Program-made: the position numbers and the translations under genes
Notes under the pieces: generated by a model
The model's input: only the letters and a program-made list of their open reading frames with translations
Told to the model about the DNA's origin: nothing
The model's database searches: none
Part shown: positions 1,580-10,596 of the stretch, one piece after another
How positions within the stretch are numbered: position 1 is the first letter of the stretch
How the letters are laid out: each line of letters begins with the position of its first letter
UHGV virus genome: UHGV-1753860
Length of the DNA stretch: 10,775 nt
Source of the DNA: a virus
Direction: 5' to 3' (one strand)

Positions 1580-2236
1580 TCAGAAAATATCCCACCTGGC
1601 ATCAACCACAACACCTACTATTTCGCAATCATTGTCCATTTCTATGATTGGATATTGTGGATTAAGGGGCTTTAGAAACGCCTTTCCCATGTCAGAAATA
1701 TATTTTTTGAATGTTGCTTCATTGGTAGATTTTTTTCTGGCGATGACGTAACACCCTGAAAAAACTTCTTTATCTGGGTTGACAAGGATCGACATTCCTT
1801 CAGGAAATGTTATTCCTACGGGCGAAGTCATTGAGTCTCCGTGCACTTCCAGCCAGAACCCCCTCTCACCAGCGTATTTTACAGAATGCCTCCAATTATC
1901 CTGATCATACATGTTGTAGTCATCACCAGAAGTTGCGAATAATCCTGCCTGAACCCAGTTAATTACAGGGTAAGAGTGTGCTGTGTCTCTCTGTGGGCAG
2001 CTCTTAACATTATTTTCCCAATGCTTATCTTTTTCATCTCCGTTCTGAAGCCACTGCGGTGAACACCGCAGTGCAGCTGCAACTTTAAAAAGGGTGTCAC
2101 CGTTGAAACTTTTTGTAAGGCCTTGCTCGGCTTTACTGATTGCAACTCTGGTGACCCCAGCTTTTTTAGCCAACGCATCTTGTGTTAACCCAGCTTTTTG
2201 CCGTGCGTTGATGAGACGTTCACCTAAAGACTTCAT
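1580..2236 (-). CDS. cI: Lambda CI-type prophage repressor (N-terminal HTH, C-terminal S24 LexA-like autopeptidase domain)
   Basis: N-terminal HTH (LGERLINARQKAGLTQDALAKKAGVTRVAISKAEQG); C-terminal HGDSM serine motif and ARKK lysine region; C-terminus FKKYISDMGKAFLKPLNPQYPII closely parallels lambda CI [23 protein letters not shown] as recalled. Start placed at ATG 2236 (MKSLGERL) because of the strong AGAGGAG Shine-Dalgarno; the longer track ORF reaching 2311 has no such signal. Confidence 0.93.
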   Translation of the reverse strand: MKSLGERLINARQKAGLTQDALAKKAGVTRVAISKAEQGLTKSFNGDTLFKVAAALRCSPQWLQNGDEKDKHWENNVKSCPQRDTAHSYPVINWVQAGLFATSGDDYNMYDQDNWRHSVKYAGERGFWLEVHGDSMTSPVGITFPEGMSILVNPDKEVFSGCYVIARKKSTNEATFKKYISDMGKAFLKPLNPQYPIIEMDNDCEIVGVVVDARWDIF

Positions 2237-2260
2237 TTTTCTTCTCCTCTCATGGCTGTT

Positions 2261-2330
2261 GATACTAAAGTAACAGAATTTCTTGATACTTTGGGTTCCT
2301 GTGGTTAACATCGTTGGATAACAAAGTATC
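2261..2330. promoter_or_regulatory. oR-like tripartite operator region with candidate divergent promoters (pR rightward, pRM leftward)
   Basis: Three 14-bp sites GATACTAAAGTAAC (2261-2274), GATACTTTGGGTTC (2285-2298), GATAACAAAGTATC (2317-2330) with the same motif as the oL-like cluster. Plus-strand TTGATA (2283-2288), 17 nt, TAACAT (2306-2311) is a plausible pR; a weaker minus-strand -10 (TAGTAT, complement of 2263-2268) could serve the repressor gene. Confidence 0.55.
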
Positions 2331-2347
2331 TGGTGTGAGACTAAAGA

Positions 2348-2575
2348 ATGACCCTTTATGAAATATTAAAAATTCAATTTAAAACCAATGCCGCTATTGG
2401 TCGCAGGTTCCCAAAGAAAGGAAGGCCTCGTGGCAGTCAAGGTGTTGGAAAGTGGAAAACGCGAGGTGTTCCGGAGGATGTTGCCATTCTTTGTCATCTG
2501 GATCCGAGCATTCCATATACACACCCAAGTCTAGCGAATACAGAAGATGACAAGCCCACAGGAGACCAACAATGA
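2348..2575 (+). CDS. Small basic hypothetical protein (75 aa) in the position where cro is expected; coding status uncertain
   Basis: ORF in supplied track begins 18 nt after the last operator site and its stop overlaps the next start (ATGA at 2572-2575), but the Shine-Dalgarno is weak and I see no recognisable Cro-type HTH. Confidence 0.25.
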   Translation: MTLYEILKIQFKTNAAIGRRFPKKGRPRGSQGVGKWKTRGVPEDVAILCHLDPSIPYTHPSLANTEDDKPTGDQQ

Positions 2576-3279
2576 ACACCGCAATTTTTAACGGCAAAGC
2601 ATCCATGACCAGCGTTGAGATCGCAGAGCTGGTGGGAAGCCGACCAGATAGTGTTAAGAGAACTATTGAAACACTGGCTAAAAAGGGAATCATCCAATTT
2701 CCACAGACTGTGGAAATTGAGAATAAACAATCACTTGGGCCTCGCCGATTTTCTAGCGCGTATGTATTCGAAGGTGAACGAGGTAAGCGCGACAGCATCA
2801 TTGTCGTCGCACAGCTCTGTCCTGAATTCACAGCTCGCCTGGTAGATCGCTGGCGCGAACTGGAAGAACAGATCCGTAAGCCAATGAGCGAAATCGAAAT
2901 GGTTGCCGCGATGGCTCTTGAAGCCGTTCGCCAACAGAAACGGATCACTCAGGTGGAAGAAAAAGTCAGCCACGTTGCTGAAACAGTCGAGCAAATTAAA
3001 AAGGGCACTATTCGTGAGGGCTATGCCGGATATCGCCAACTGAAAGCAAAAACCGGTTTGTCAGATGATAAATGCCGCAATCTGGTGAACGCCTATCAAA
3101 TTCCTACAGACACACATGAGTTCATGACGCCGGACGGATTGTTGTCACGTCGCGCAATTGTTGCTGTGGAACCGTTTATGGCTGCTTTTTATCGGGTTAT
3201 GGAGGAAGCAGAACCGCGAGGGACTCGCTGGTATCACCCGAAAATGGGGTTATTTCAGGTTATTGGTTGGCAGCGGTGA
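2572..3279 (+). CDS. Rha-family (KilA-N clan) phage regulatory / antirepressor-like protein, 235 aa
   Basis: N-terminus NGKASMTSVEIAELVGSRPDSVKRTIETL and downstream RLVDRWRELEEQI fit the Rha-domain pattern as recalled (S.EIAEL.G.RHDNV.R.I, DRW.ELE). Strong AGGAGA Shine-Dalgarno 6 nt before ATG 2572. Confidence 0.75.
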   Translation: MNTAIFNGKASMTSVEIAELVGSRPDSVKRTIETLAKKGIIQFPQTVEIENKQSLGPRRFSSAYVFEGERGKRDSIIVVAQLCPEFTARLVDRWRELEEQIRKPMSEIEMVAAMALEAVRQQKRITQVEEKVSHVAETVEQIKKGTIREGYAGYRQLKAKTGLSDDKCRNLVNAYQIPTDTHEFMTPDGLLSRRAIVAVEPFMAAFYRVMEEAEPRGTRWYHPKMGLFQVIGWQR

Positions 3280-3302
3280 AAAAAAGCCGGGAGTAACCCG
3301 GC
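3279..3302 (-). terminator. Intrinsic (rho-independent) terminator for leftward transcription
   Basis: Plus strand reads A7 (3279-3285), GCCGGG (3286-3291), loop AGTAA, CCCGGC (3297-3302). On the minus strand this is a 6-bp GC stem followed by U7. No U-tract follows on the plus strand, so it is oriented for leftward transcripts and abuts the stop codon of the 2572-3279 gene. Confidence 0.6.
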
Positions 3303-3365
3303 TCACTCAACATCAATAACGGGGAGCTGTTTCGCATAAAACGGCTCCGAAACATCCAAGAACAG
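3279..3365 (-). ncRNA. Candidate leftward small RNA (OOP-like position), about 85 nt, ending at the 3279-3302 terminator
   Basis: Minus-strand promoter-like hexamers TTGAAA (complement of 3395-3400), 18-nt spacer, TATCTT (complement of 3371-3376) would start transcription near 3364; the transcript would contain the 3323-3348 hairpin and end at the U7 terminator. No protein-coding capacity. Hypothetical. Confidence 0.25.
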
Positions 3366-3409
3366 TTCTAAAGATATCAGCAGCTATATGATCATTTCAA
3401 GACCAAATA

Positions 3410-3438
3410 TTGATTCTGCAATTTCGGGACGTTAAACT
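3410..3438 (+). promoter_or_regulatory. Candidate sigma70 promoter of small-RNA module 1
   Basis: TTGATT (3410-3415), 17-nt spacer, TAAACT (3433-3438). The same arrangement recurs at 4066-4094 inside a 62-nt block that is 60/62 identical by hand alignment. Confidence 0.5.
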
Positions 3439-3444
3439 GTCTCT

Positions 3445-3521
3445 GCACCTTATAAAGCGGGTGCCGGGGGTCGCAGCCCGGAATTGTCAACGGCGATATA
3501 TGACGCGCCAGCGTCTTTTTT
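3445..3521 (+). ncRNA. Candidate small RNA 1 (about 77 nt): conserved 5' block, hairpin, single-stranded seed GUCAACGG, intrinsic terminator
   Basis: Predicted start G3445; hairpin CCGGG/CCCGG (3464-3481); seed GTCAACGG (3486-3493); terminator GACGC-GCCA-GCGTC followed by T6 (3502-3521). Seed is perfectly complementary to CCGTTGAC at 3590-3597 and identical to GTCAACGG at 3669-3676, which overlaps the GGAGG ribosome-binding site of the Rha gene at 3688. Confidence 0.5.
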
Positions 3522-3687
3522 ATCGTCCGCGCTCACGCACGCCAGAATTATGGTGGGCTGGGCAGGGGAGCCGAAAGGCTCGCCGGTCTCCGTTGACGCC
3601 GGTACTGCGAACCCTGTTCAGTCTGCCACCAGTGAGTTTCGCAGCTCCGGTGGTGGAAGTTTTTCACTGTCAACGGAGGCTGCCATC

Positions 3688-4050
3688 ATGGCTACTGTCC
3701 TAACTTCCCCATTCCTAAAAATCGAAGTCGTCAACGGCAAGGCCGTTATTTTCTCCCTGCATGTTGCCTGCCATTTCAAGCGCATGCACCAGAACATCGT
3801 TGACAAAATCGAGTATCTGAACTGCTCACGCGAGTTTTTTACCCGCAATTTCATACCGGGTACTTATCACATCTACGGTGACTCCCTGCGTGGTTATTAC
3901 ATCACCCTTGATGGTCTGATGATGCTTCAGCTTGGGTTAAGTCTGCGCACAATGCGGTACTACGAGAGCTGTATTGAAGCATTCCATGAGGCTGAAACCG
4001 TCCAGGGTCACTCCGCGTTCCGTCGTAATCAACGGGAGGTGCACCTATGA
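3688..4050 (+). CDS. Rha-family phage regulatory protein (short, about 120 aa, Rha domain only)
   Basis: MATVLTSPFLKIEVVNGKAVIFSLHVACHFKRMHQNIVDKIEYL fits the Rha N-terminal pattern. ATG 3688 has GGAGG 9 nt upstream. The supplied track extends the frame to a TTG at 3484, but that start has no ribosome-binding site. Confidence 0.75.
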   Translation: MATVLTSPFLKIEVVNGKAVIFSLHVACHFKRMHQNIVDKIEYLNCSREFFTRNFIPGTYHIYGDSLRGYYITLDGLMMLQLGLSLRTMRYYESCIEAFHEAETVQGHSAFRRNQREVHL

Positions 4051-4898
4051 TCCGCCACCAGCATATTGATTCTGCAATTTCGGGACGTTACACTGTCTCC
4101 GCACCTTATAAAGCGGGTGCCGGGCGTGGAAACCCGAAATTCAATATAGAGCACAACCGCGCTCATGCGGTTTTTTCGTGTCATGAGCATCGTTACGCCC
4201 AAATTATGGTGGGACGTGCAGGGCCAACTTCGGTTGGGCCGGGTTCTATGTTGACCGGTATTTCCACCCCTGTACGTCTCACCACCTATATGGTCGTGGA
4301 AAGCCTTGGTGGTGAGTTCATTGAATTCAACATAGGGGCTGTCACCATGACTACTCTCCCAGCCCAATCTCACCCTGAAATCACGATTATCAATGGTCGC
4401 GTTGTCACCACATCTCTTGCAGTAGCTAATTACTTTACTAAACGGCATGAGCGGGTTTTAGATAGAATTAGAAACCTCGAATGTTCCGCTGAATTTACTG
4501 AACACAATTTTGTGTTAAGTGAATACACCGACGCATCAGGCCGCAAACTCCCTTGTTACCAAATCACCCGCGACGGTTTTGCGTTTCTTGCCATGGGCTT
4601 CACTGGTAAACGTGCTGCCCAGTTCAAAGAGGCATACATCAACGCCTTTAACCAGATGGAGAAGAATTTATCTGGTGCTGACGCGGTTGATATGTCAGCT
4701 GTCGCACGAAACGCCAGAGGCGTATACCTGCATTTGCGTGAAATCCATCAAATCTGGACAAGCCAGCTTTATCCAATGCTTAAGGCCGTTGAATCTCCGC
4801 TGGCTAGCAAACTGTACGACCGTGTTGGTGATGCTGTTTTTGGCGCTGCACTTGTTGATTCCAGGCTGAATGGTTCTGACAAGGAGGTTCGCCCATGA
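4047..4898 (+). CDS. Rha-family phage regulatory protein; start ambiguous between ATG 4047 (long, 283 aa) and ATG 4347 (Rha domain at the N-terminus, 183 aa)
   Basis: Rha motif VVTTSLAVANYFTKRHERVLDRIRNLE begins about 10 residues after M4347, which fits the family architecture. ATG 4047 has a strong GGAGG 7 nt upstream and overlaps the previous stop (ATGA), and the frame is open throughout, so a long isoform or coupled leader translation cannot be excluded. The 4047-4346 stretch also holds the small-RNA module 2 signals. Confidence 0.7.
   Translation: MIRHQHIDSAISGRYTVSAPYKAGAGRGNPKFNIEHNRAHAVFSCHEHRYAQIMVGRAGPTSVGPGSMLTGISTPVRLTTYMVVESLGGEFIEFNIGAVTMTTLPAQSHPEITIINGRVVTTSLAVANYFTKRHERVLDRIRNLECSAEFTEHNFVLSEYTDASGRKLPCYQITRDGFAFLAMGFTGKRAAQFKEAYINAFNQMEKNLSGADAVDMSAVARNARGVYLHLREIHQIWTSQLYPMLKAVESPLASKLYDRVGDAVFGAALVDSRLNGSDKEVRP
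4066..4094 (+). promoter_or_regulatory. Candidate sigma70 promoter of small-RNA module 2
   Basis: TTGATT (4066-4071), 17-nt spacer, TACACT (4089-4094); paralogous to 3410-3438. Confidence 0.45.
4101..4176 (+). ncRNA. Candidate small RNA 2 (about 76 nt): same architecture as small RNA 1 but with seed UCAAUAUAG
   Basis: Predicted start G4101; hairpin CGGG/CCCG (4121-4136); seed TCAATATAG (4141-4149); terminator ACCGC-GCTCAT-GCGGT followed by T6 (4156-4176). Seed pairs with CTATGTTGA at 4246-4254 (8 Watson-Crick pairs plus one G-U) and matches TCAACATAG at 4327-4335 next to the ribosome-binding site of the Rha start at 4347. Confidence 0.45.
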
Positions 4899-5089
4899 TT
4901 AGTTACGAAATCATCATCTCCACTACGGAATACAGAAACGATGTATCAGTTCGCACGGATGTATCTGTCTGGCACCGTCGCTATAAATCCAGAAAAACAG
5001 CGGAACTGAAAGCGGCAGAGATGTGTGAAACCATCTCAATGAAAGGTAGCCCGGTTAAATACGTAACTACGGCGGAGGTGCGTCCATGA
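4895..5089 (+). CDS. Hypothetical small protein (64 aa)
   Basis: ATG 4895 overlaps the previous stop (ATGA); GGAGG 7 nt upstream; no recognisable motif. Confidence 0.5.
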   Translation: MISYEIIISTTEYRNDVSVRTDVSVWHRRYKSRKTAELKAAEMCETISMKGSPVKYVTTAEVRP

Positions 5090-5310
5090 TCCGCCACATC
5101 GTTAATTCCCTGTATCACCGATACAACCGTTGCCCCCGTGTGGGGCAGTGGTTCGCCACCAGCAACGGTCACGTTCTGCGGGTTTGCCTAGTCAACGCTG
5201 AAAGCCAGAAAGTCGTGTGCGAACTACAGGGGCGTAGCTACACCATCAGTTACCCTCTGGCGGTATTTCTGTCTGGAAAAATGTTTAAGCGTCTGGGAGG
5301 TGTGGCGTGA
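5086..5310 (+). CDS. Hypothetical small protein (74 aa)
   Basis: ATG 5086 overlaps the previous stop; GGAGG 7 nt upstream; begins MIRH, as does the 4047 ORF. Confidence 0.5.
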   Translation: MIRHIVNSLYHRYNRCPRVGQWFATSNGHVLRVCLVNAESQKVVCELQGRSYTISYPLAVFLSGKMFKRLGGVA

Positions 5311-5606
5311 ACTGTTTTCAGTTTGTGTGCGGATGTGCTTTCGATAACCCGATTCAGCGCCTGATTATGTTGCGTGTTTTGATGTCGGGTTCTTCAGACG
5401 GTGAAGGCGAGAGAGTTATTGATCATCAGGTGCTTGCTGATTTCTGCTGTTGTTCTAAGCAAGCGATATTCAGGGAAACCCTGGCACTGGAAAGAGCTGG
5501 TTATCTTCATATCCGAAAAATTGCAACGCTTACTATTGATGCAAAAGCCAGACTACAACCTGCGCGTGGCTACACAATTCTCATGCCGCGGAAGGAGGTT
5601 GTATGA
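5307..5606 (+). CDS. Hypothetical protein (99 aa), possibly a winged-helix DNA-binding protein
   Basis: GTG start overlapping the previous stop with GGAGG upstream; the segment VIDHQVLADFCCCSKQAIFRETLALERAGYLHIRK looks like an HTH or winged-helix recognition unit. Weak inference. Confidence 0.45.
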   Translation: MNCFQFVCGCAFDNPIQRLIMLRVLMSGSSDGEGERVIDHQVLADFCCCSKQAIFRETLALERAGYLHIRKIATLTIDAKARLQPARGYTILMPRKEVV

Positions 5607-6595
5607 GCCGTTACGCCCCCACACCGGAAGTTATGGCTATTGGTCAAATTAATATTTCCGGCAATGTTACACCTGCGAACTGGTGGAAATATATTCGACT
5701 ACCCAGTGGGCGTCCGGATGCGACGGCTATCGCTCTGCTTTCAGAGATCGTTTACTGGTACCGCCCGACAGAGGTCAGGGATGAGCACACCGGAGCGTTG
5801 CTGGGATATCGCAAGCGTTTTCAGGGCGACAAACTGCAAAGAAGCTACCAGGCGTTTGCTGAGCAGTTTGGTTTCGGGAAAAGGGAAACCGCAGATGCGC
5901 TGAAGCGTCTGCGCGATGCAGGGTTTATTACTCTGGATTTACGCACGGTGGAAATGCTCGATGGGGTGAAATGCAGCAATATTTTGTTTGTCGGGATCAA
6001 CCCACAGGCAATTGCGGCCATCACCACACCTTCTTCTGTTTCGCCAGAAAGTAACAGCAATAATGCAATCAGCGATACAGCTATTACGTTAAAACGGAAC
6101 ACCCCCCGACGTCATAACGGAACAGGGGATACGCCGAATGTTGATACAAATACAGAGATTACTACAGAGATTACAACGGAGACTAAAAACACTATTGATG
6201 CATCCGCTGACGCGTCTGCGCCAGCGCGTTCTGCCCGACAGGAATATTCACCGGAATTTGAACAGGCCTGGCAGGAATATCCCAAACGTGCTGGTGGCAA
6301 TTCCAAGTCAGCAGCCTTCAAAGCCTGGAAAGCCCGTATCAGGGAGGGAATAAAACCGGAGACCATGCTTGATGGCGTGAAGCGGTATGCCGCCTGGGTA
6401 CGTGCTACAGGAAATACCGGCACACAGTTCGTGAAGCAGGCTGCGACGTTCTTTGGACCCGATCGTCACTTCGAAGATTACTGGCAACAGCCAGCCGCTC
6501 ACGGAGGTGGGCGACAGCGACAGGTCGATGTCCTGGCTGGCCTGGGAGCCATGTCTGACAAATTCGGTAAATCCAGTAACAAATTGACATTCTGA
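5603..6595 (+). CDS. Phage replication initiation protein (O-like, partner of the DnaC-type loader); family assignment tentative
   Basis: 330-aa ORF with GGAGG ribosome-binding site, directly upstream of and translationally coupled to the DnaC-like and DnaB-like genes. Two-domain layout with a Thr/Ser/Asp-rich low-complexity linker whose DNA carries iteron-like repeats. Confidence 0.65.
   Translation: MSRYAPTPEVMAIGQINISGNVTPANWWKYIRLPSGRPDATAIALLSEIVYWYRPTEVRDEHTGALLGYRKRFQGDKLQRSYQAFAEQFGFGKRETADALKRLRDAGFITLDLRTVEMLDGVKCSNILFVGINPQAIAAITTPSSVSPESNSNNAISDTAITLKRNTPRRHNGTGDTPNVDTNTEITTEITTETKNTIDASADASAPARSARQEYSPEFEQAWQEYPKRAGGNSKSAAFKAWKARIREGIKPETMLDGVKRYAAWVRATGNTGTQFVKQAATFFGPDRHFEDYWQQPAAHGGGRQRQVDVLAGLGAMSDKFGKSSNKLTF
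6152..6185. repeat. Iteron-like direct repeats (2.5 copies of a 12-bp unit) inside the initiator gene; candidate origin element
   Basis: ACAGAGATTACT (6152-6163), ACAGAGATTACA (6164-6175), ACGGAGACTA (6176-6185), followed by a GC-rich near-palindrome around GACGCGTC. Lambdoid origins commonly sit inside the initiator gene. Confidence 0.35.
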
Positions 6596-6605
6596 GGTGA
6601 CAGCG

Positions 6606-7505
6606 ATGATGACGATTGACCAACGTGAGAAACAAACAAGACTACAGGCGCGAATGGATGAGTTACGGGCAGAAATGGATGAGTTACGGGCAGAGATTGC
6701 ATTTGCTCAGAAGGGCGAAAAGCCATGGCCTTATCGTTCCTGCCTGATGCGTGAAGGTCACGGATATTGCGAAAAACACGGTAAATATCGTACGCATATA
6801 CTGGTGTGGATCGATCGTAATGGCGAGGACAGAGAAAAAATTTCATGCTGCCCTGACTGCTTGATCGCTGAGGCCAGTGATTTGACCATGGAACTGTCGT
6901 CCCTCAAGGCGGAAGAACTGACTGATAACGCCGGAATTGCTCTGCGTTTTCGGGACTGCGAGTTTGATAATTATCTGGAGGTTAATCCTGACGCAGCCAG
7001 AAATCTTGCGGCCTGTCGCCGCTATGCGGAGAACTGGCCAGATATGCTGGAGAACGGTACCAGTCTTGTTATGACCGGCAGTTGCGGTACCGGGAAAAAT
7101 CATCTGGCGGTATCAATGGCAAAACACATCATCCGTAACTATCTGGCCAGTGTGGAGATCACCGACGTGATGCGCCTTACCCGGGCTGTGAAAAACTGCT
7201 GGCGGAATGACAGTGAAAAAACAGCGGATGACGTCATTGAGCATTATGCGTCACTGGATTTGCTGATTGTCGACGAAGTCGGCGTTCAGTTTGGCAGTGC
7301 GGCTGAAATGGCCATTTTGCAGGAAATTATCAATGCCCGGTATGAGGGTATTTTGCCAACTATCCTGATCAGCAACCTTTCACCGGAAGAATTGTGGGCG
7401 TTCATCAGTCCCCGGATTGCCGACAGGATCACCGATGGCGGGCGCAACTGGTTGTCGTTTAACTGGCCCAGCTACCGTTCTCGTATCGGAGGTGTTGCCG
7501 CATGA
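6606..7505 (+). CDS. DnaC-type (IstB-like AAA+) replicative helicase loader
   Basis: Walker A LVMTGSCGTGKNHLAVSMA resembles E. coli DnaC GKPGTGKNHLAAAI as recalled; Walker B LLIVDEVG; Cys/His cluster near the N-terminus. Start set at ATG 6606 (GAGGTG upstream) rather than the GTG at 6597 in the track. Confidence 0.88.
   Translation: MMTIDQREKQTRLQARMDELRAEMDELRAEIAFAQKGEKPWPYRSCLMREGHGYCEKHGKYRTHILVWIDRNGEDREKISCCPDCLIAEASDLTMELSSLKAEELTDNAGIALRFRDCEFDNYLEVNPDAARNLAACRRYAENWPDMLENGTSLVMTGSCGTGKNHLAVSMAKHIIRNYLASVEITDVMRLTRAVKNCWRNDSEKTADDVIEHYASLDLLIVDEVGVQFGSAAEMAILQEIINARYEGILPTILISNLSPEELWAFISPRIADRITDGGRNWLSFNWPSYRSRIGGVAA
6654..6695 (+). repeat. Perfect-to-near-perfect 21-bp tandem duplication inside the helicase-loader coding sequence
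   Basis: ATGGATGAGTTACGGGCAGAA (6654-6674) is followed by ATGGATGAGTTACGGGCAGAG (6675-6695); in frame, it encodes MDELRAE twice. Confidence 0.9.
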
Positions 7506-8902
7506 CCAGCCAGAACACCCCGGCATGGCGTAACGATGACCTGGAAGGCGCTGTCATCGGTGCGTTTTTTCTGCGTGGGGCCGATCCGGAAGTGATGGAT
7601 ATTCTGGCCACACTTCCGGCGGATGTATTTTTTGTGCGTCAGTACCGGGATATTTACGCGGGGATTTGCAGACAGGCTCGCATATCCGGCGTCATTGACC
7701 CCGTACTGCTGTGCAATGAGATGCCGGAACTTGCCCCGGTGATTACCGACACCGGACGCAAAACCTGGGTGAAGTCTTCACTGGAGCACTATGTCGCAGC
7801 GTTGCGGCGCAATGCCGCACTGCGCGATGCAGAAAAAACACTGACTGAAGCATTACAGAATTTACGTGATGCGTATACCTGTGAAGCAGCCGAGGATGCC
7901 CTGAAGGATGTGCAGAACATGATGGCCTCACTGTCGACCGGAAAGGGCGTCATTCAGCCGGTTCACATTGATGATGTCCTTCCGGAAGTGGTCGACCGTG
8001 TTGAATGCCGCAATCAGGGACTGGAGAAATCCAGGGCACTGATGACCGGTATTGATGAACTGGACGCAAAAACGGGCGGTATGGAGCCCGGAGACCTGGT
8101 ATTCATTGCCGCCCGTCCTTCGATGGGGAAAACCGAACTTGCGCTGGACATCATCGACAAGGTGACTGAGCAGGGGCATGGCGTGCTTCTGTTCACCATG
8201 GAGATGGCGAACATCCAGATTGGTGAACGTATGGTGTCTGCTGCCGGTGGAATGCCGGTATCCCGTCTTAAGTCTGTTGCCAGTTTTGAAGATGAAGACT
8301 GGGCGCGTTTCTCGCAGGGCGTGGGACGAATGACGGGGCGTAATATCTGGATGGTGGATCAGGCAAACCTGACCATTGATGAGATATGTGCAACCACGAA
8401 GCACCACCGGATGAAACACCCGGAAACGGCGCTGGTGGTGGTCGATTACCTCGGTCTGATTAAAACCCGCAGCACGGGGCGTCACGACCTTGCTGTGGGG
8501 GAAATCTCAAAGGGACTTAAAAGCCTGGCAAAATCCGGCGGTTTCCCGCTGATTGCTCTGAGCCAGCTCTCCCGAGGCGTGGAATCCAGACCCAATAAAC
8601 GTCCCATGAACTCAGACCTGAAAAACTCCGGGGAAATAGAGGCTGATGCCGACATCATTCTGATGCTTTACAGGGATGAGGTGTATAACCCGGATACACA
8701 GGCCAGAGGCATAGCAGAAATCAACATCACGAAACAGCGTAATGGCACACTCGGGACCATTTACCGGCGTTTTCATAACGGACATTTTCTGCCTGTGGAC
8801 CAGGAGAGTGCCCGGGTTCTTTCCACACCCATGACGCCGGGCAATCCGCGCAGATACAGCAATTACCGCATGTCGGGCAGTAAAACGGAGCGTTTATTTT
8901 GA
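7502..8902 (+). CDS. Replicative DNA helicase, DnaB family
   Basis: Walker A GDLVFIAARPSMGKTELAL; Walker B VVVDYLGLI; the hallmark stretch IALSQLSRGVESRPNKRPMNSDLKNSGEIEADADIILMLYRDEVYNP. ATG 7502 overlaps the upstream stop; GGAGG 9 nt upstream. Confidence 0.93.
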   Translation: MTSQNTPAWRNDDLEGAVIGAFFLRGADPEVMDILATLPADVFFVRQYRDIYAGICRQARISGVIDPVLLCNEMPELAPVITDTGRKTWVKSSLEHYVAALRRNAALRDAEKTLTEALQNLRDAYTCEAAEDALKDVQNMMASLSTGKGVIQPVHIDDVLPEVVDRVECRNQGLEKSRALMTGIDELDAKTGGMEPGDLVFIAARPSMGKTELALDIIDKVTEQGHGVLLFTMEMANIQIGERMVSAAGGMPVSRLKSVASFEDEDWARFSQGVGRMTGRNIWMVDQANLTIDEICATTKHHRMKHPETALVVVDYLGLIKTRSTGRHDLAVGEISKGLKSLAKSGGFPLIALSQLSRGVESRPNKRPMNSDLKNSGEIEADADIILMLYRDEVYNPDTQARGIAEINITKQRNGTLGTIYRRFHNGHFLPVDQESARVLSTPMTPGNPRRYSNYRMSGSKTERLF

Positions 8903-9156
8903 ACAACAGAACAATCACTGTTTCACCGGAACAACTTCGTCGGCAGGCGCAGGAGATGCTTCGTTGTGCTGAACAGATGGAAAAAACGAGCGTGAAAAAA
9001 GATACGCTCCGCAAGCAGCTTACTCCGGCGCTTCGTGATCTGCTGCAGGCAAAACACCGCACACAAAAGGCGGTGGATGAGCTGGTGGATTGCGTGGCGG
9101 AACTGGAAGGACAGGTAAGCCAGTTTGAAACGCTGGTGAAGGAGTTTACTGCGTGA
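8899..9156 (+). CDS. Hypothetical small protein (85 aa), predicted coiled-coil
   Basis: TTG start overlapping the helicase stop with GGAG 8 nt upstream; first in-frame ATG is at 8956; charged heptad-like sequence; no recognisable motif. Confidence 0.45.
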   Translation: MNNRTITVSPEQLRRQAQEMLRCAEQMEKTSVKKDTLRKQLTPALRDLLQAKHRTQKAVDELVDCVAELEGQVSQFETLVKEFTA

Positions 9157-9202
9157 TGGCTGAATTTTTTTCTCCTGCGTTCATGCAATACCGTTCGCTG
9201 AG

Positions 9203-10198
9203 GTGACCGTGAGAGCACTGCTGACCCCTGAAATTGCCCCGCGTATGGGGATCGTCTTGTTCAGACCCGGTTCAGAGCTGATGCCCCTGTTTATGCAGGG
9301 GCGTGTCCTGCTGGAGCCTGAGCCGGAACGTTATTCATCTTTTGCCAGTGGTGCCGTTCCGGCAGCATCACAACCGCTGGCGGATGATCCTGCCGTTCGG
9401 GCCGTGTTCCGCCATGAGGCGGTGATCCGTCGTGCTGGTGGCGTGGAATGCCTTGAGAGCTGGTTACTTCGTGAAAAAGGCTGCCAGTGGCCTCATTCCG
9501 GATGGCACAGCGAGAACATGACCACAATGCGACACGCGCCGGGCACAATCCGTCTGTGCTGGCACTGCGATAACCTGCTTCGCGATCAGTTCACGGAACG
9601 TCTGGAATCAATGGCAACGGATAACTGTGCCCGCTGGGTGTTGTCCGTAGTCCGTCGTGATCTCGGTTTTGATGACAGCCACGTTGTGACAATGCCGGAA
9701 CTGTGCTGGTGGCTGATTCGTAATGATCTGGCGGATGCCTTATCGGAAAGTGCAGCCCGTAAGGCACTGAGATTACCGAAGCCTGTTGTGCCGTCTGTCA
9801 CCCGGGAAAGTGACCTTGTGCCTTCGGTTCCTGCCACCAGCATCATCCAGGATAAAGCGAAAAAGGTGCTGGCGCTGAAAGTGGATCCGGAGTCGCCGGA
9901 GTCTTTTATGTTACGCCCAAAACGTCGCCGCTGGGTTAATGAAAAGTACACGCGCTGGGTTAAGACACAGCCGTGTGCATGTTGTGGAAAGCCCGCTGAT
10001 GATCCCCACCACCTGATAGGTCACGGTCAGGGTGGAATGGGAACAAAAGCGCATGACCTTTTTGTGTTGCCTTTGTGCAGAAAACACCATGACGAACTGC
10101 ATGCGGATACCGTGGCATTTGAAGAGAAGTATGGCTCCCAACTGGAGCTGATATTTCGTTTTATCGATCGCGCGCTGGCGATTGGTGTGCTGTCCTGA
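9203..10198 (+). CDS. Prophage nin-region protein with C-terminal Cys/His-rich domain (DUF968-like as recalled)
   Basis: C-terminus CACCGKPADDPHHLIGHGQGGMGTKAHDLFVLPLCRKHHDELH carries a CxxC..HH..PLC..HH pattern typical of a domain found between replication genes and Q in enterobacterial prophages. GTG start with AGGTG upstream; exact start uncertain. Confidence 0.65.
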   Translation: MTVRALLTPEIAPRMGIVLFRPGSELMPLFMQGRVLLEPEPERYSSFASGAVPAASQPLADDPAVRAVFRHEAVIRRAGGVECLESWLLREKGCQWPHSGWHSENMTTMRHAPGTIRLCWHCDNLLRDQFTERLESMATDNCARWVLSVVRRDLGFDDSHVVTMPELCWWLIRNDLADALSESAARKALRLPKPVVPSVTRESDLVPSVPATSIIQDKAKKVLALKVDPESPESFMLRPKRRRWVNEKYTRWVKTQPCACCGKPADDPHHLIGHGQGGMGTKAHDLFVLPLCRKHHDELHADTVAFEEKYGSQLELIFRFIDRALAIGVLS

Positions 10199-10215
10199 TT
10201 TTGTGGAGAAAGTTG

Positions 10216-10596
10216 ATGCGTGATATTCAGATGGTTCTTGAACGCTGGGGGGCATGGGCTGCAAGTGGTAACACCGGGGTGGACTATTCTCCGATCGCTG
10301 CCGGATTCAAAGGACTTTTACCATCTGCCACTAAACCACGTCCGGCCTGCTGCGATGATGACGGACTTATCATTGAAAACTGTCTTGCTCGTCTGAAGCA
10401 GAAAAAACCTGAGGAGTATTCGCTTCTCATTGCTCATTATTTGTTGCGAATATCAAAAAGACAGATAGCCAGGAAGAGAAAGAAAAGCGAAAAAGCAATA
10501 CGAATTGAGATGCAGATAGCCGAAGGGTTTATTGACGGATGTTTGTCTGTGCTGGGGGTAAGACTGGAGATGGACGACTGGCTGCTAAAAAAGTAA
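10216..10596 (+). CDS. Late-gene antitermination protein Q (small Q family, QuuD-like)
   Basis: N-terminus MRDIQMVLERWGAWAA matches what I recall of E. coli DLP12 QuuD and relatives; last gene before an intergenic region and a strong intrinsic terminator, as in the Q, pR', tR' arrangement. Start set at ATG 10216 rather than TTG 10201. Confidence 0.8.
   Translation: MRDIQMVLERWGAWAASGNTGVDYSPIAAGFKGLLPSATKPRPACCDDDGLIIENCLARLKQKKPEEYSLLIAHYLLRISKRQIARKRKKSEKAIRIEMQIAEGFIDGCLSVLGVRLEMDDWLLKK

Follow-up and report, generated by a model that had tools for sequence, protein, structure and literature searches.

The spacer between the first Rha-family gene (rha) and the first isrK/C4 module of this prophage is best read as a small leftward unit of transcription that has a promoter and a terminator of its own and a cis-antisense RNA as its predicted product; from the sequence evidence we put the probability of this reading at roughly 55%. 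The spacer is 108 nt long, from the rha stop codon to the annotated start of the first module ORF (ATG 3388), and the best candidate for its product would be an unannotated cis-antisense small RNA (sRNA) of approximately 81-92 nt.

Genomic setting of the spacer

The window (the whole 10,775-nt stretch of DNA analysed here) is the early control region of a lambdoid E. coli prophage. Past position 160 it is 100% identical to the JKHS016 prophage, save for five single-base differences; positions 1-160 have no match to that prophage, so that the left end of the window contains a mosaic breakpoint. From rha to the first module (2572-4060) identity is approximately 92% to Stx2a-converting phages and approximately 89% to phiP27 and phage ASU11. 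The genes and RNA genes surrounding the spacer are as follows.

1580-2311, minus strand: LexA/S24-type CI repressor (from gene order)
2348-2575, plus strand: small gene in the Cro position (from gene order)
2572-3279, plus strand: first Rha-family gene, rha (PGAP: Rha family transcriptional regulator)
3277-3279, plus strand: TGA stop codon of rha, whose final A is the first base of the A-run described below
3410-3438, plus strand: inferred isrK promoter TTGATT-17-TAAACT (read from the sequence; 7 nt before the Rfam isrK start at 3445)
3445-3521, plus strand: isrK of module 1 (Rfam)
3546-3633, plus strand: C4 of module 1 (Rfam)
4101-4177, plus strand: isrK of module 2 (Rfam)
4202-4289, plus strand: C4 of module 2 (Rfam)

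After rha come the two tandem modules, followed by replication genes and a Q-like antiterminator. All of the other genes at 2348-10596, that is, every gene past the repressor, are oriented rightward, and consequently a leftward terminator at this place needs a local leftward promoter.

The tandem isrK and C4 modules (3407-3633 and 4063-4289) lie 656 nt apart; over 79 nt, their promoters and the 5' part of isrK share 91% identity, and each has a different C4 loop. The inferred isrK promoter, of which there is a similar copy at 4063-4141, falls below the threshold of the promoter scan. The isrK and C4 matches of both modules sit within ORFs annotated as ash or Rha family. One of the five differences from JKHS016 is found here: the codon at 3433-3435 reads TAA in the window and TAC in JKHS016 and nearly all other copies, owing to position 3435. 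TAA interrupts the annotated 'ash family protein' ORF (3388-4050) at its codon 16, and the same base lies within the inferred isrK -10, changing TACACT to TAAACT.

The C4 loop at 3588-3597 (CTCCGTTGAC) is the exact complement of 3669-3678 and a near complement of 3486-3496, a pattern that agrees with the classical a'/b' target arrangement. An in-frame ATG (3679) has a strong GGAGG, which is located within the C4-complementary site 3669-3678 (ORFs 3388-4050 and 4047-4898). The C4 RNA gene (3546-3633) falls where Pfam matches Phage_ASH in ORF 3484-4047 (residues 12-74, about nt 3517-3705). The 'Ash' N-terminal domain may largely be translated isrK/C4 RNA genes, and the true protein may begin downstream of C4, as in icd/ant of P1.

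A leftward terminator and a leftward promoter-like site

The features of the spacer that belong to the proposed unit are listed from left to right, i.e. from the 3' end to the promoter of the predicted RNA.

3279-3302, minus strand: leftward intrinsic terminator, consisting of the minus-strand stem-loop 3302..3286 (GCCGGG-TTACT-CCCGGC) followed by U7 from 3285..3279
3280-3364, minus strand: predicted leftward sRNA of approximately 85 nt (inferred start 3364 ± 3, seven nt past the -10)
3303-3322, minus strand: linker between the hairpins (minus-strand CCGUUAUUGAUGUUGAGUGA), U/A-rich and predicted to be single-stranded
3323-3348, either strand: middle hairpin GGAGCTGTTT / CGCATA / AAACGGCTCC (10 bp, 6-nt loop)
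3351-3363, minus strand: conserved 13-nt box at the predicted RNA 5' end (plus AACATCCAAGAAC, minus GUUCUUGGAUGUU)
3371-3379, minus strand: extended -10 TGaTATCTT (TATCTT at 3376-3371, TG at 3379-3378; promoter scan)
3395-3400, minus strand: -35 hexamer TTGAAA (promoter scan; 18 nt from the -10)

In plus-strand letters, the terminator hairpin consists of the stem GCCGGG (3286-3291), the loop AGTAA (3292-3296) and the stem CCCGGC (3297-3302). Seven A's (3279-3285) precede it, and it is followed by TCACTC, without a T-run. Read leftward, it shows the features of an intrinsic terminator (GC-rich stem, 5-nt loop and T7 on the minus strand), and its folding energy is -15 kcal/mol. It was the top terminator-like site in 2000-5000, where 10 such sites were found against 3.2 expected. 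The sequence-only reading had proposed a hairpin at 3286-3302 with the A-run on its left side only, acting as a leftward terminator at the rha stop codon. These coordinates proved to be exact, and the terminator scan lists the hairpin for the minus strand alone, at 3304..3284, with 8 pairs (6 G-C) and the tail TTTTT. The 3' end of the RNA is predicted at about 3280-3283.

The promoter-like site TTGAAA-18-TATCTT is the sole one on the minus strand to the right of the terminator in 2000-5000. The TG that makes its -10 an extended one, at 3379-3378, was absent from the sequence-only reading. The site matches the consensus in only 9 of 12 positions and its 18-nt spacer is suboptimal. Promoter-like matches numbered 5 in 3 kb against 3.6 expected, and such a match is by itself weak evidence; by a rough estimate, a correctly oriented site would fall no more than 100 nt from the terminator by chance about 1 time in 15. 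Neither a LexA box nor CII-type TTGC repeats were seen by eye at the promoter. The leftward promoter and the inferred isrK promoter stand back-to-back, with 9 bp separating their -35 hexamers, and because of this arrangement they may be co-regulated. In three viral contigs (L035, L040 and L125) a divergent protein gene running leftward has its start codon some 45 nt away from the isrK promoter; a back-to-back leftward promoter beside the isrK promoter thus seems to recur in unrelated contexts.

Distribution and three sequence types

Of 5426 complete E. coli genomes about 237 contained the spacer, and it recurred in many contigs of viral and metagenomic origin, invariably in the same context, between this Rha gene and the isrK promoter. 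It was absent from isrK promoters in other contexts, and absent altogether beside distant Rha homologues (Yersinia, Providencia, Proteus, Atlantibacter and others). The form of the window, type A, occurred in 204 of the 5426 genomes, and two diverged forms, types B and C, in 33. Strains O103:H2 12009, O111:H- 11128, O145:H28 RM13516 and JKHS016 carry type A, SE11 carries type B and MS8345 type C, and types B and C were found in others. The 91 copies collected from genomes and from viral and metagenome contigs gave 25 distinct variants. An nhmmer profile of the 25 variants, run against all fetched loci, returned full-length members of types A, B and C only, and 35 further metagenome contigs added one new middle-hairpin variant and no fourth type. 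Nine genomes harboured two type-A copies (213 places in 204 genomes); this co-residence gave no signal of mutual exclusion and was near chance by a rough estimate.

The flanks of the spacer (the last 500 nt of rha on one side, the isrK/C4 module on the other) were 80-100% identical between types, and the spacer core (3307-3384) only about 50%; for the DNA flanking the core the figure was 93-100%. The elements of the proposed unit were kept in this diverged core and at its borders. Between type A and types B and C, the A-run and terminator stems were identical in 19 of 19 positions and the -35 hexamer in 6 of 6. All of the consensus-defining positions of the TG and the -10 were kept as well (TATCTT in type A, TATTTT in types B and C, the extended -10 of the latter two being TGgTATTTT). 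The spacing was exactly 18 nt in each type, while only 8 of 15 positions of the promoter spacer sequence were identical and type B had a 6-nt indel between the -10 and the box. Across the three types the terminator stem and A-run were invariant and the loop variable, and the -35 hexamer was unchanged in 24 of the 25 distinct variants. The anatomy of promoter, terminator and box, together with its conservation, is in this way visible in the sequences themselves.

The same scan that found the minus-strand promoter and terminator pair in the window found it in type B (L002) and in type C (L019), which are about 50% identical to it in the core, and this raises the promoter above chance level. Its conservation may partly be due to other constraints, since the CATATG in the promoter spacer serves as the annotated start codon of ash, and the -35 occupies the place of an UP element for the isrK promoter. 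The sequence-only reading had derived a leftward transcript from TTGAAA-18-TATCTT; the promoter half of that proposal gained from its conservation across three types, and the transcript stays a predicted one. With three independent sequence types only, the statistical power behind the leftward-RNA reading is low.

The N-terminal helix-turn-helix of Rha (window 2620-2770, residues ~17-66) is itself hypervariable among prophages that are otherwise nearly identical: its DNA identity is 26-83%, against 93-100% for the remainder of rha. This part exists in five or six protein variants at least, which reassort independently of spacer type; one of them occurs with all three types. Co-evolution of the spacer with the Rha DNA-binding domain was considered and rejected, as the N-terminal variants combine freely with all three types.

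The middle hairpin and the question of strand

The second structure that the sequence-only reading had pointed out, a 10-bp hairpin at 3323-3348 with one T-G pair that becomes C-A on the minus strand, was recovered both in the sequence and in folding (T3328-G3343: a wobble on the plus strand, a C-A mismatch on the minus strand). Alone, the type A middle hairpin folds with -15.1 kcal/mol on the plus strand and -11.8 kcal/mol on the minus strand. The stem is replaced between types and a hairpin is kept at the same position: the arms are GGAGCTGTTT/AAACGGCTCC in type A, GGC-ACTTC/GAAGT-GCC in type B and GGC-CTGC/GCAG-GCC in type C. The hairpin of each type beats shuffled sequences, an equally good fold being reached by 0.25-3.9% of 2000 shuffles, depending on type and strand. 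Loop sequences of the two hairpins show free variation within types.

When a stem base undergoes a transition, one strand is left with a G-U wobble and the opposite strand with a C-A mismatch, and natural variants can be sorted accordingly. In type A, the resident T-G pair and two recurrent variants (GGTTCC and CTCTG) favour plus-strand pairing; the type B variants ACCTC and GAC and the terminator variant CCCAGC favour minus-strand pairing. A strand call from wobble-type variants was rejected as uninformative, the count being three to three, and the caution that the sequence-only reading had expressed about the strand of the second hairpin was well placed. The plus-strand fold of the 85-nt span has an energy of -28.5 kcal/mol and a z of -5.1 (z about -5 to -6, against -2.6 on the minus strand). 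If the spacer gives a cis-antisense RNA, the sRNA and its target both carry the hairpin; ambiguity of strand is then expected and is not troubling. Contact between the loops of mirrored hairpins starts pairing in several antisense systems (CopA/CopT, RNA I/RNA II).

The predicted leftward RNA

From the promoter and terminator positions the RNA is predicted to be about 85 nt long in the window (type A), the size given in the sequence-only reading, and about 92 nt in type B and 81 nt in type C. The minus-strand fold of the 85-nt span (-27.7 kcal/mol, z -2.6) shows a single-stranded 5' end, the middle hairpin, the U/A-rich linker and the terminator. The 13-nt box at the predicted 5' end was identical in types A and B (13/13), and CCAAGAAC is common to type C. 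The linker is less conserved: 13 of the 18 positions compared (3303-3320) were identical between types A and B. A U7 tail, the linker UUAUUGAUGUUGA and a conserved 5' box are present, which would be compatible with an Hfq-dependent sRNA, and in the modelled fold the linker (3303-3322) is a possible Hfq-type site. A trans target of the conserved 5' box was sought in the window, and only the cis complement was found.

All 4227 Rfam families (including C4, isrK and c4-a1b1) were searched, and none matched in 3280-3400 at E<=1. The spacer sequence was not found in the searchable literature, the reviews of which list no such RNA. A small protein encoded by the leftward RNA was considered for each type and rejected. 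In type A, ATG 3337 has a GGAG 7 nt upstream; its frame runs through the terminator, and the ATG is absent from types B and C. Types B and C have an ORF that begins at the palindromic CATATG; this start is located upstream of the -10, is missing in type A (ATA) and opens frames that differ past the hairpin.

Alternative readings of the spacer

The strand ambiguity of the middle hairpin bears directly on an alternative in which only the plus-strand transcript from pR exists and the hairpins are 3' stabilisers or processing sites of rha mRNA, or a structured spacer RNA before the isrK module, with no discrete leftward RNA. The plus-strand fold is the more stable and more unusual of the two (-28.5 kcal/mol, z -5.1, against -27.7 kcal/mol, z -2.6), and the type A T-G pair and the two commonest variants pair on the plus strand only; however, the type B variants ACCTC and GAC and the terminator variant CCCAGC pair on the minus strand only. 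An invariant run of 6-8 A's before the first hairpin and the missing T-run after it would go unexplained, as would the minus-strand -35, TG, -10 and 18-nt spacing conserved in a core that is 50% identical. We consider this alternative unlikely. It is still less probable that the leftward terminator is only an insulator, shielding rha, cro and cI from stray antisense transcription, with a promoter-like site and a middle hairpin that have no function. Phage phiP27 (L005, 2208-2260) speaks for such a role: a different spacer of 53 nt follows its related rha and starts with GGCCGG-N8-CCGGCC and then TTTCTTATTT, so that a hairpin stands right after the stop codon with a T-rich tail on the minus strand (read by eye), which suggests that a leftward stop at the end of rha is the selected feature. 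No convincing minus-strand promoter was seen by eye in this phiP27 spacer. In 2000-5000 of the window, by contrast, there is no other minus-strand promoter-like site to the right, and the conserved hexamers, their spacing, the 5' box and the structurally kept hairpin exceed what an insulator needs.

Two further alternatives seem very improbable. The plus strand could carry an antitermination site of the nutR or put kind, composed of a boxA-like GCUCACUCAAC (3301-3311) followed by the hairpin. The position is the appropriate one, the first intergenic spacer downstream of pR, GCTC[A/G]CTCAAC is kept in all three types, and the hairpin loops are A-rich in type B (ACAAAA) and type C (AUAAA). However, the boxA core (CUCUUUA) is not kept and GCUCACUCAAC lacks the boxA U-tract, while the stems (10 bp, or 4-5 plus 3 bp) and loops (6 nt in the window) are unlike boxB pentaloops. 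No N-like family or arginine-rich ORF was found among the visible pL-proximal genes within the window, and the A-run and the minus-strand promoter would be left without a role. The remaining alternative, equally improbable, treats the middle hairpin as a palindrome in the DNA: a phage DNA-binding protein would use it as an operator to control the back-to-back promoters, and both arms would change whenever the specificity of that protein did. Both arms are indeed replaced between types, and the Rha helix-turn-helix region varies greatly too; nevertheless, near-perfect 10-bp arms and bulge-tolerant replacements are more like those of an RNA stem.

Proposed mechanism and significance

Under the leftward-unit reading, we infer the transcript, its ends and all of the regulatory steps as follows. 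A sigma-70 extended -10 promoter (3400-3371) would start the RNA near 3364, and transcription would stop at about 3281, by the rha stop codon, through the intrinsic terminator (3302-3286 plus U7). Over its full length, the RNA would be the complement of the intercistronic stretch within the rightward early transcript (pR-cro-rha-isrK/C4/ash-replication genes), and it would probably act as a cis-antisense RNA. The mirrored hairpins on both RNAs would meet loop to loop and an RNA duplex of approximately 85 bp would then form. RNase III would cleave this duplex, removing the 3' structures of rha mRNA and splitting rha from the downstream genes, and rha mRNA would be destabilised or uncoupled, by analogy with lambda OOP and cII (PMC7067206, PMC12197685). 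Convergent transcription may also hinder read-through from pR. The outcome would be less of the anti-repressor-like Rha protein and fewer early-right products, a counterpart of the action of OOP on cII. As the predicted RNA leaves the coding sequence of rha uncovered, any effect on Rha like that of OOP would be less direct.

A bolder and rather improbable extension of this reading is that the spacer is a specificity island for an RNA-RNA interaction, in which the leftward sRNA and the mirrored hairpin of the pR target form at least three types that do not cross-react. The pattern of divergence, with a fixed scaffold and a changing hairpin, is what suggests it. If so, a third RNA layer beside IsrK and C4 would give type-specific control of anti-repressor and early genes in this prophage group, and it could also act on incoming phages of the same type.

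If the leftward RNA is real, an unannotated antisense regulator would operate at a lysis-lysogeny control point of a widespread group of E. coli prophages, which includes the Stx2a-converting phages of O157, O145, O111, O103 and O26 strains. It would adjoin two isrK/C4 RNA switches that control anti-repressor-type proteins, and would give the lambda OOP design a second, non-homologous example. With its three natural types, it lends itself directly to testing antisense specificity. In practical terms the value would be modest: better annotation of prophage early regions and a further candidate factor in the induction of Stx prophages.

Comparison with known systems

The predicted RNA shares its regulatory neighbourhood with C4 and IsrK (RF01695 and RF01394; P1/P7 immI, Gifsy-1) and would be transcribed back-to-back with the isrK promoter; it differs from them in strand, sequence and structure. 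P22 sar (68-69 nt, in the arc-ant spacer of immI; PMC12197685) is likewise a small antisense RNA located between two cistrons of an anti-repressor operon, and its promoter too lies within the operon and is convergent with the operon promoter. However, sar covers the ribosome-binding site of ant, whereas the predicted RNA lies downstream of rha and spares the start of the next ORF, as ATG 3388 is upstream of its start site.

The closest counterpart is OOP of lambda, an RNA of 77 nt transcribed from pO and antisense to the 3' end of cII, which has a positional counterpart, OOP-BTP1, in the Salmonella prophage BTP1 (PMC7067206). The existence of antisense RNAs in the OOP position in both lambda and BTP1 (PMC7067206) supports the leftward-RNA reading. 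In both OOP and the predicted RNA, a short leftward RNA lies in a rightward early operon just past the regulator gene that follows cro, its promoter overlaps the start of the next rightward gene and a strong intrinsic terminator stands at its end. The sizes are alike (77 nt against the predicted 85 nt, approximately). At the sequence level the layout of OOP is seen here, as a promoter-like site and a terminator serving the predicted RNA lie between the gene that follows cro and the next rightward gene. By contrast, OOP overlaps 55 nt of the cII coding sequence and the predicted RNA at most the rha stop codon; the upstream gene here is of the Rha/anti-repressor type and not CII, and the downstream one is the isrK/C4 module and not O. 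Alignment with oop gave only scattered matches and no sequence similarity. The analogy with OOP that the sequence-only reading had drawn consequently holds for position, and does not extend to sequence or to an overlap with coding sequence such as the 55 nt of cII. As far as can be read from these alignments, the predicted spacer RNA is not a homologue but a positional analogue of lambda OOP.
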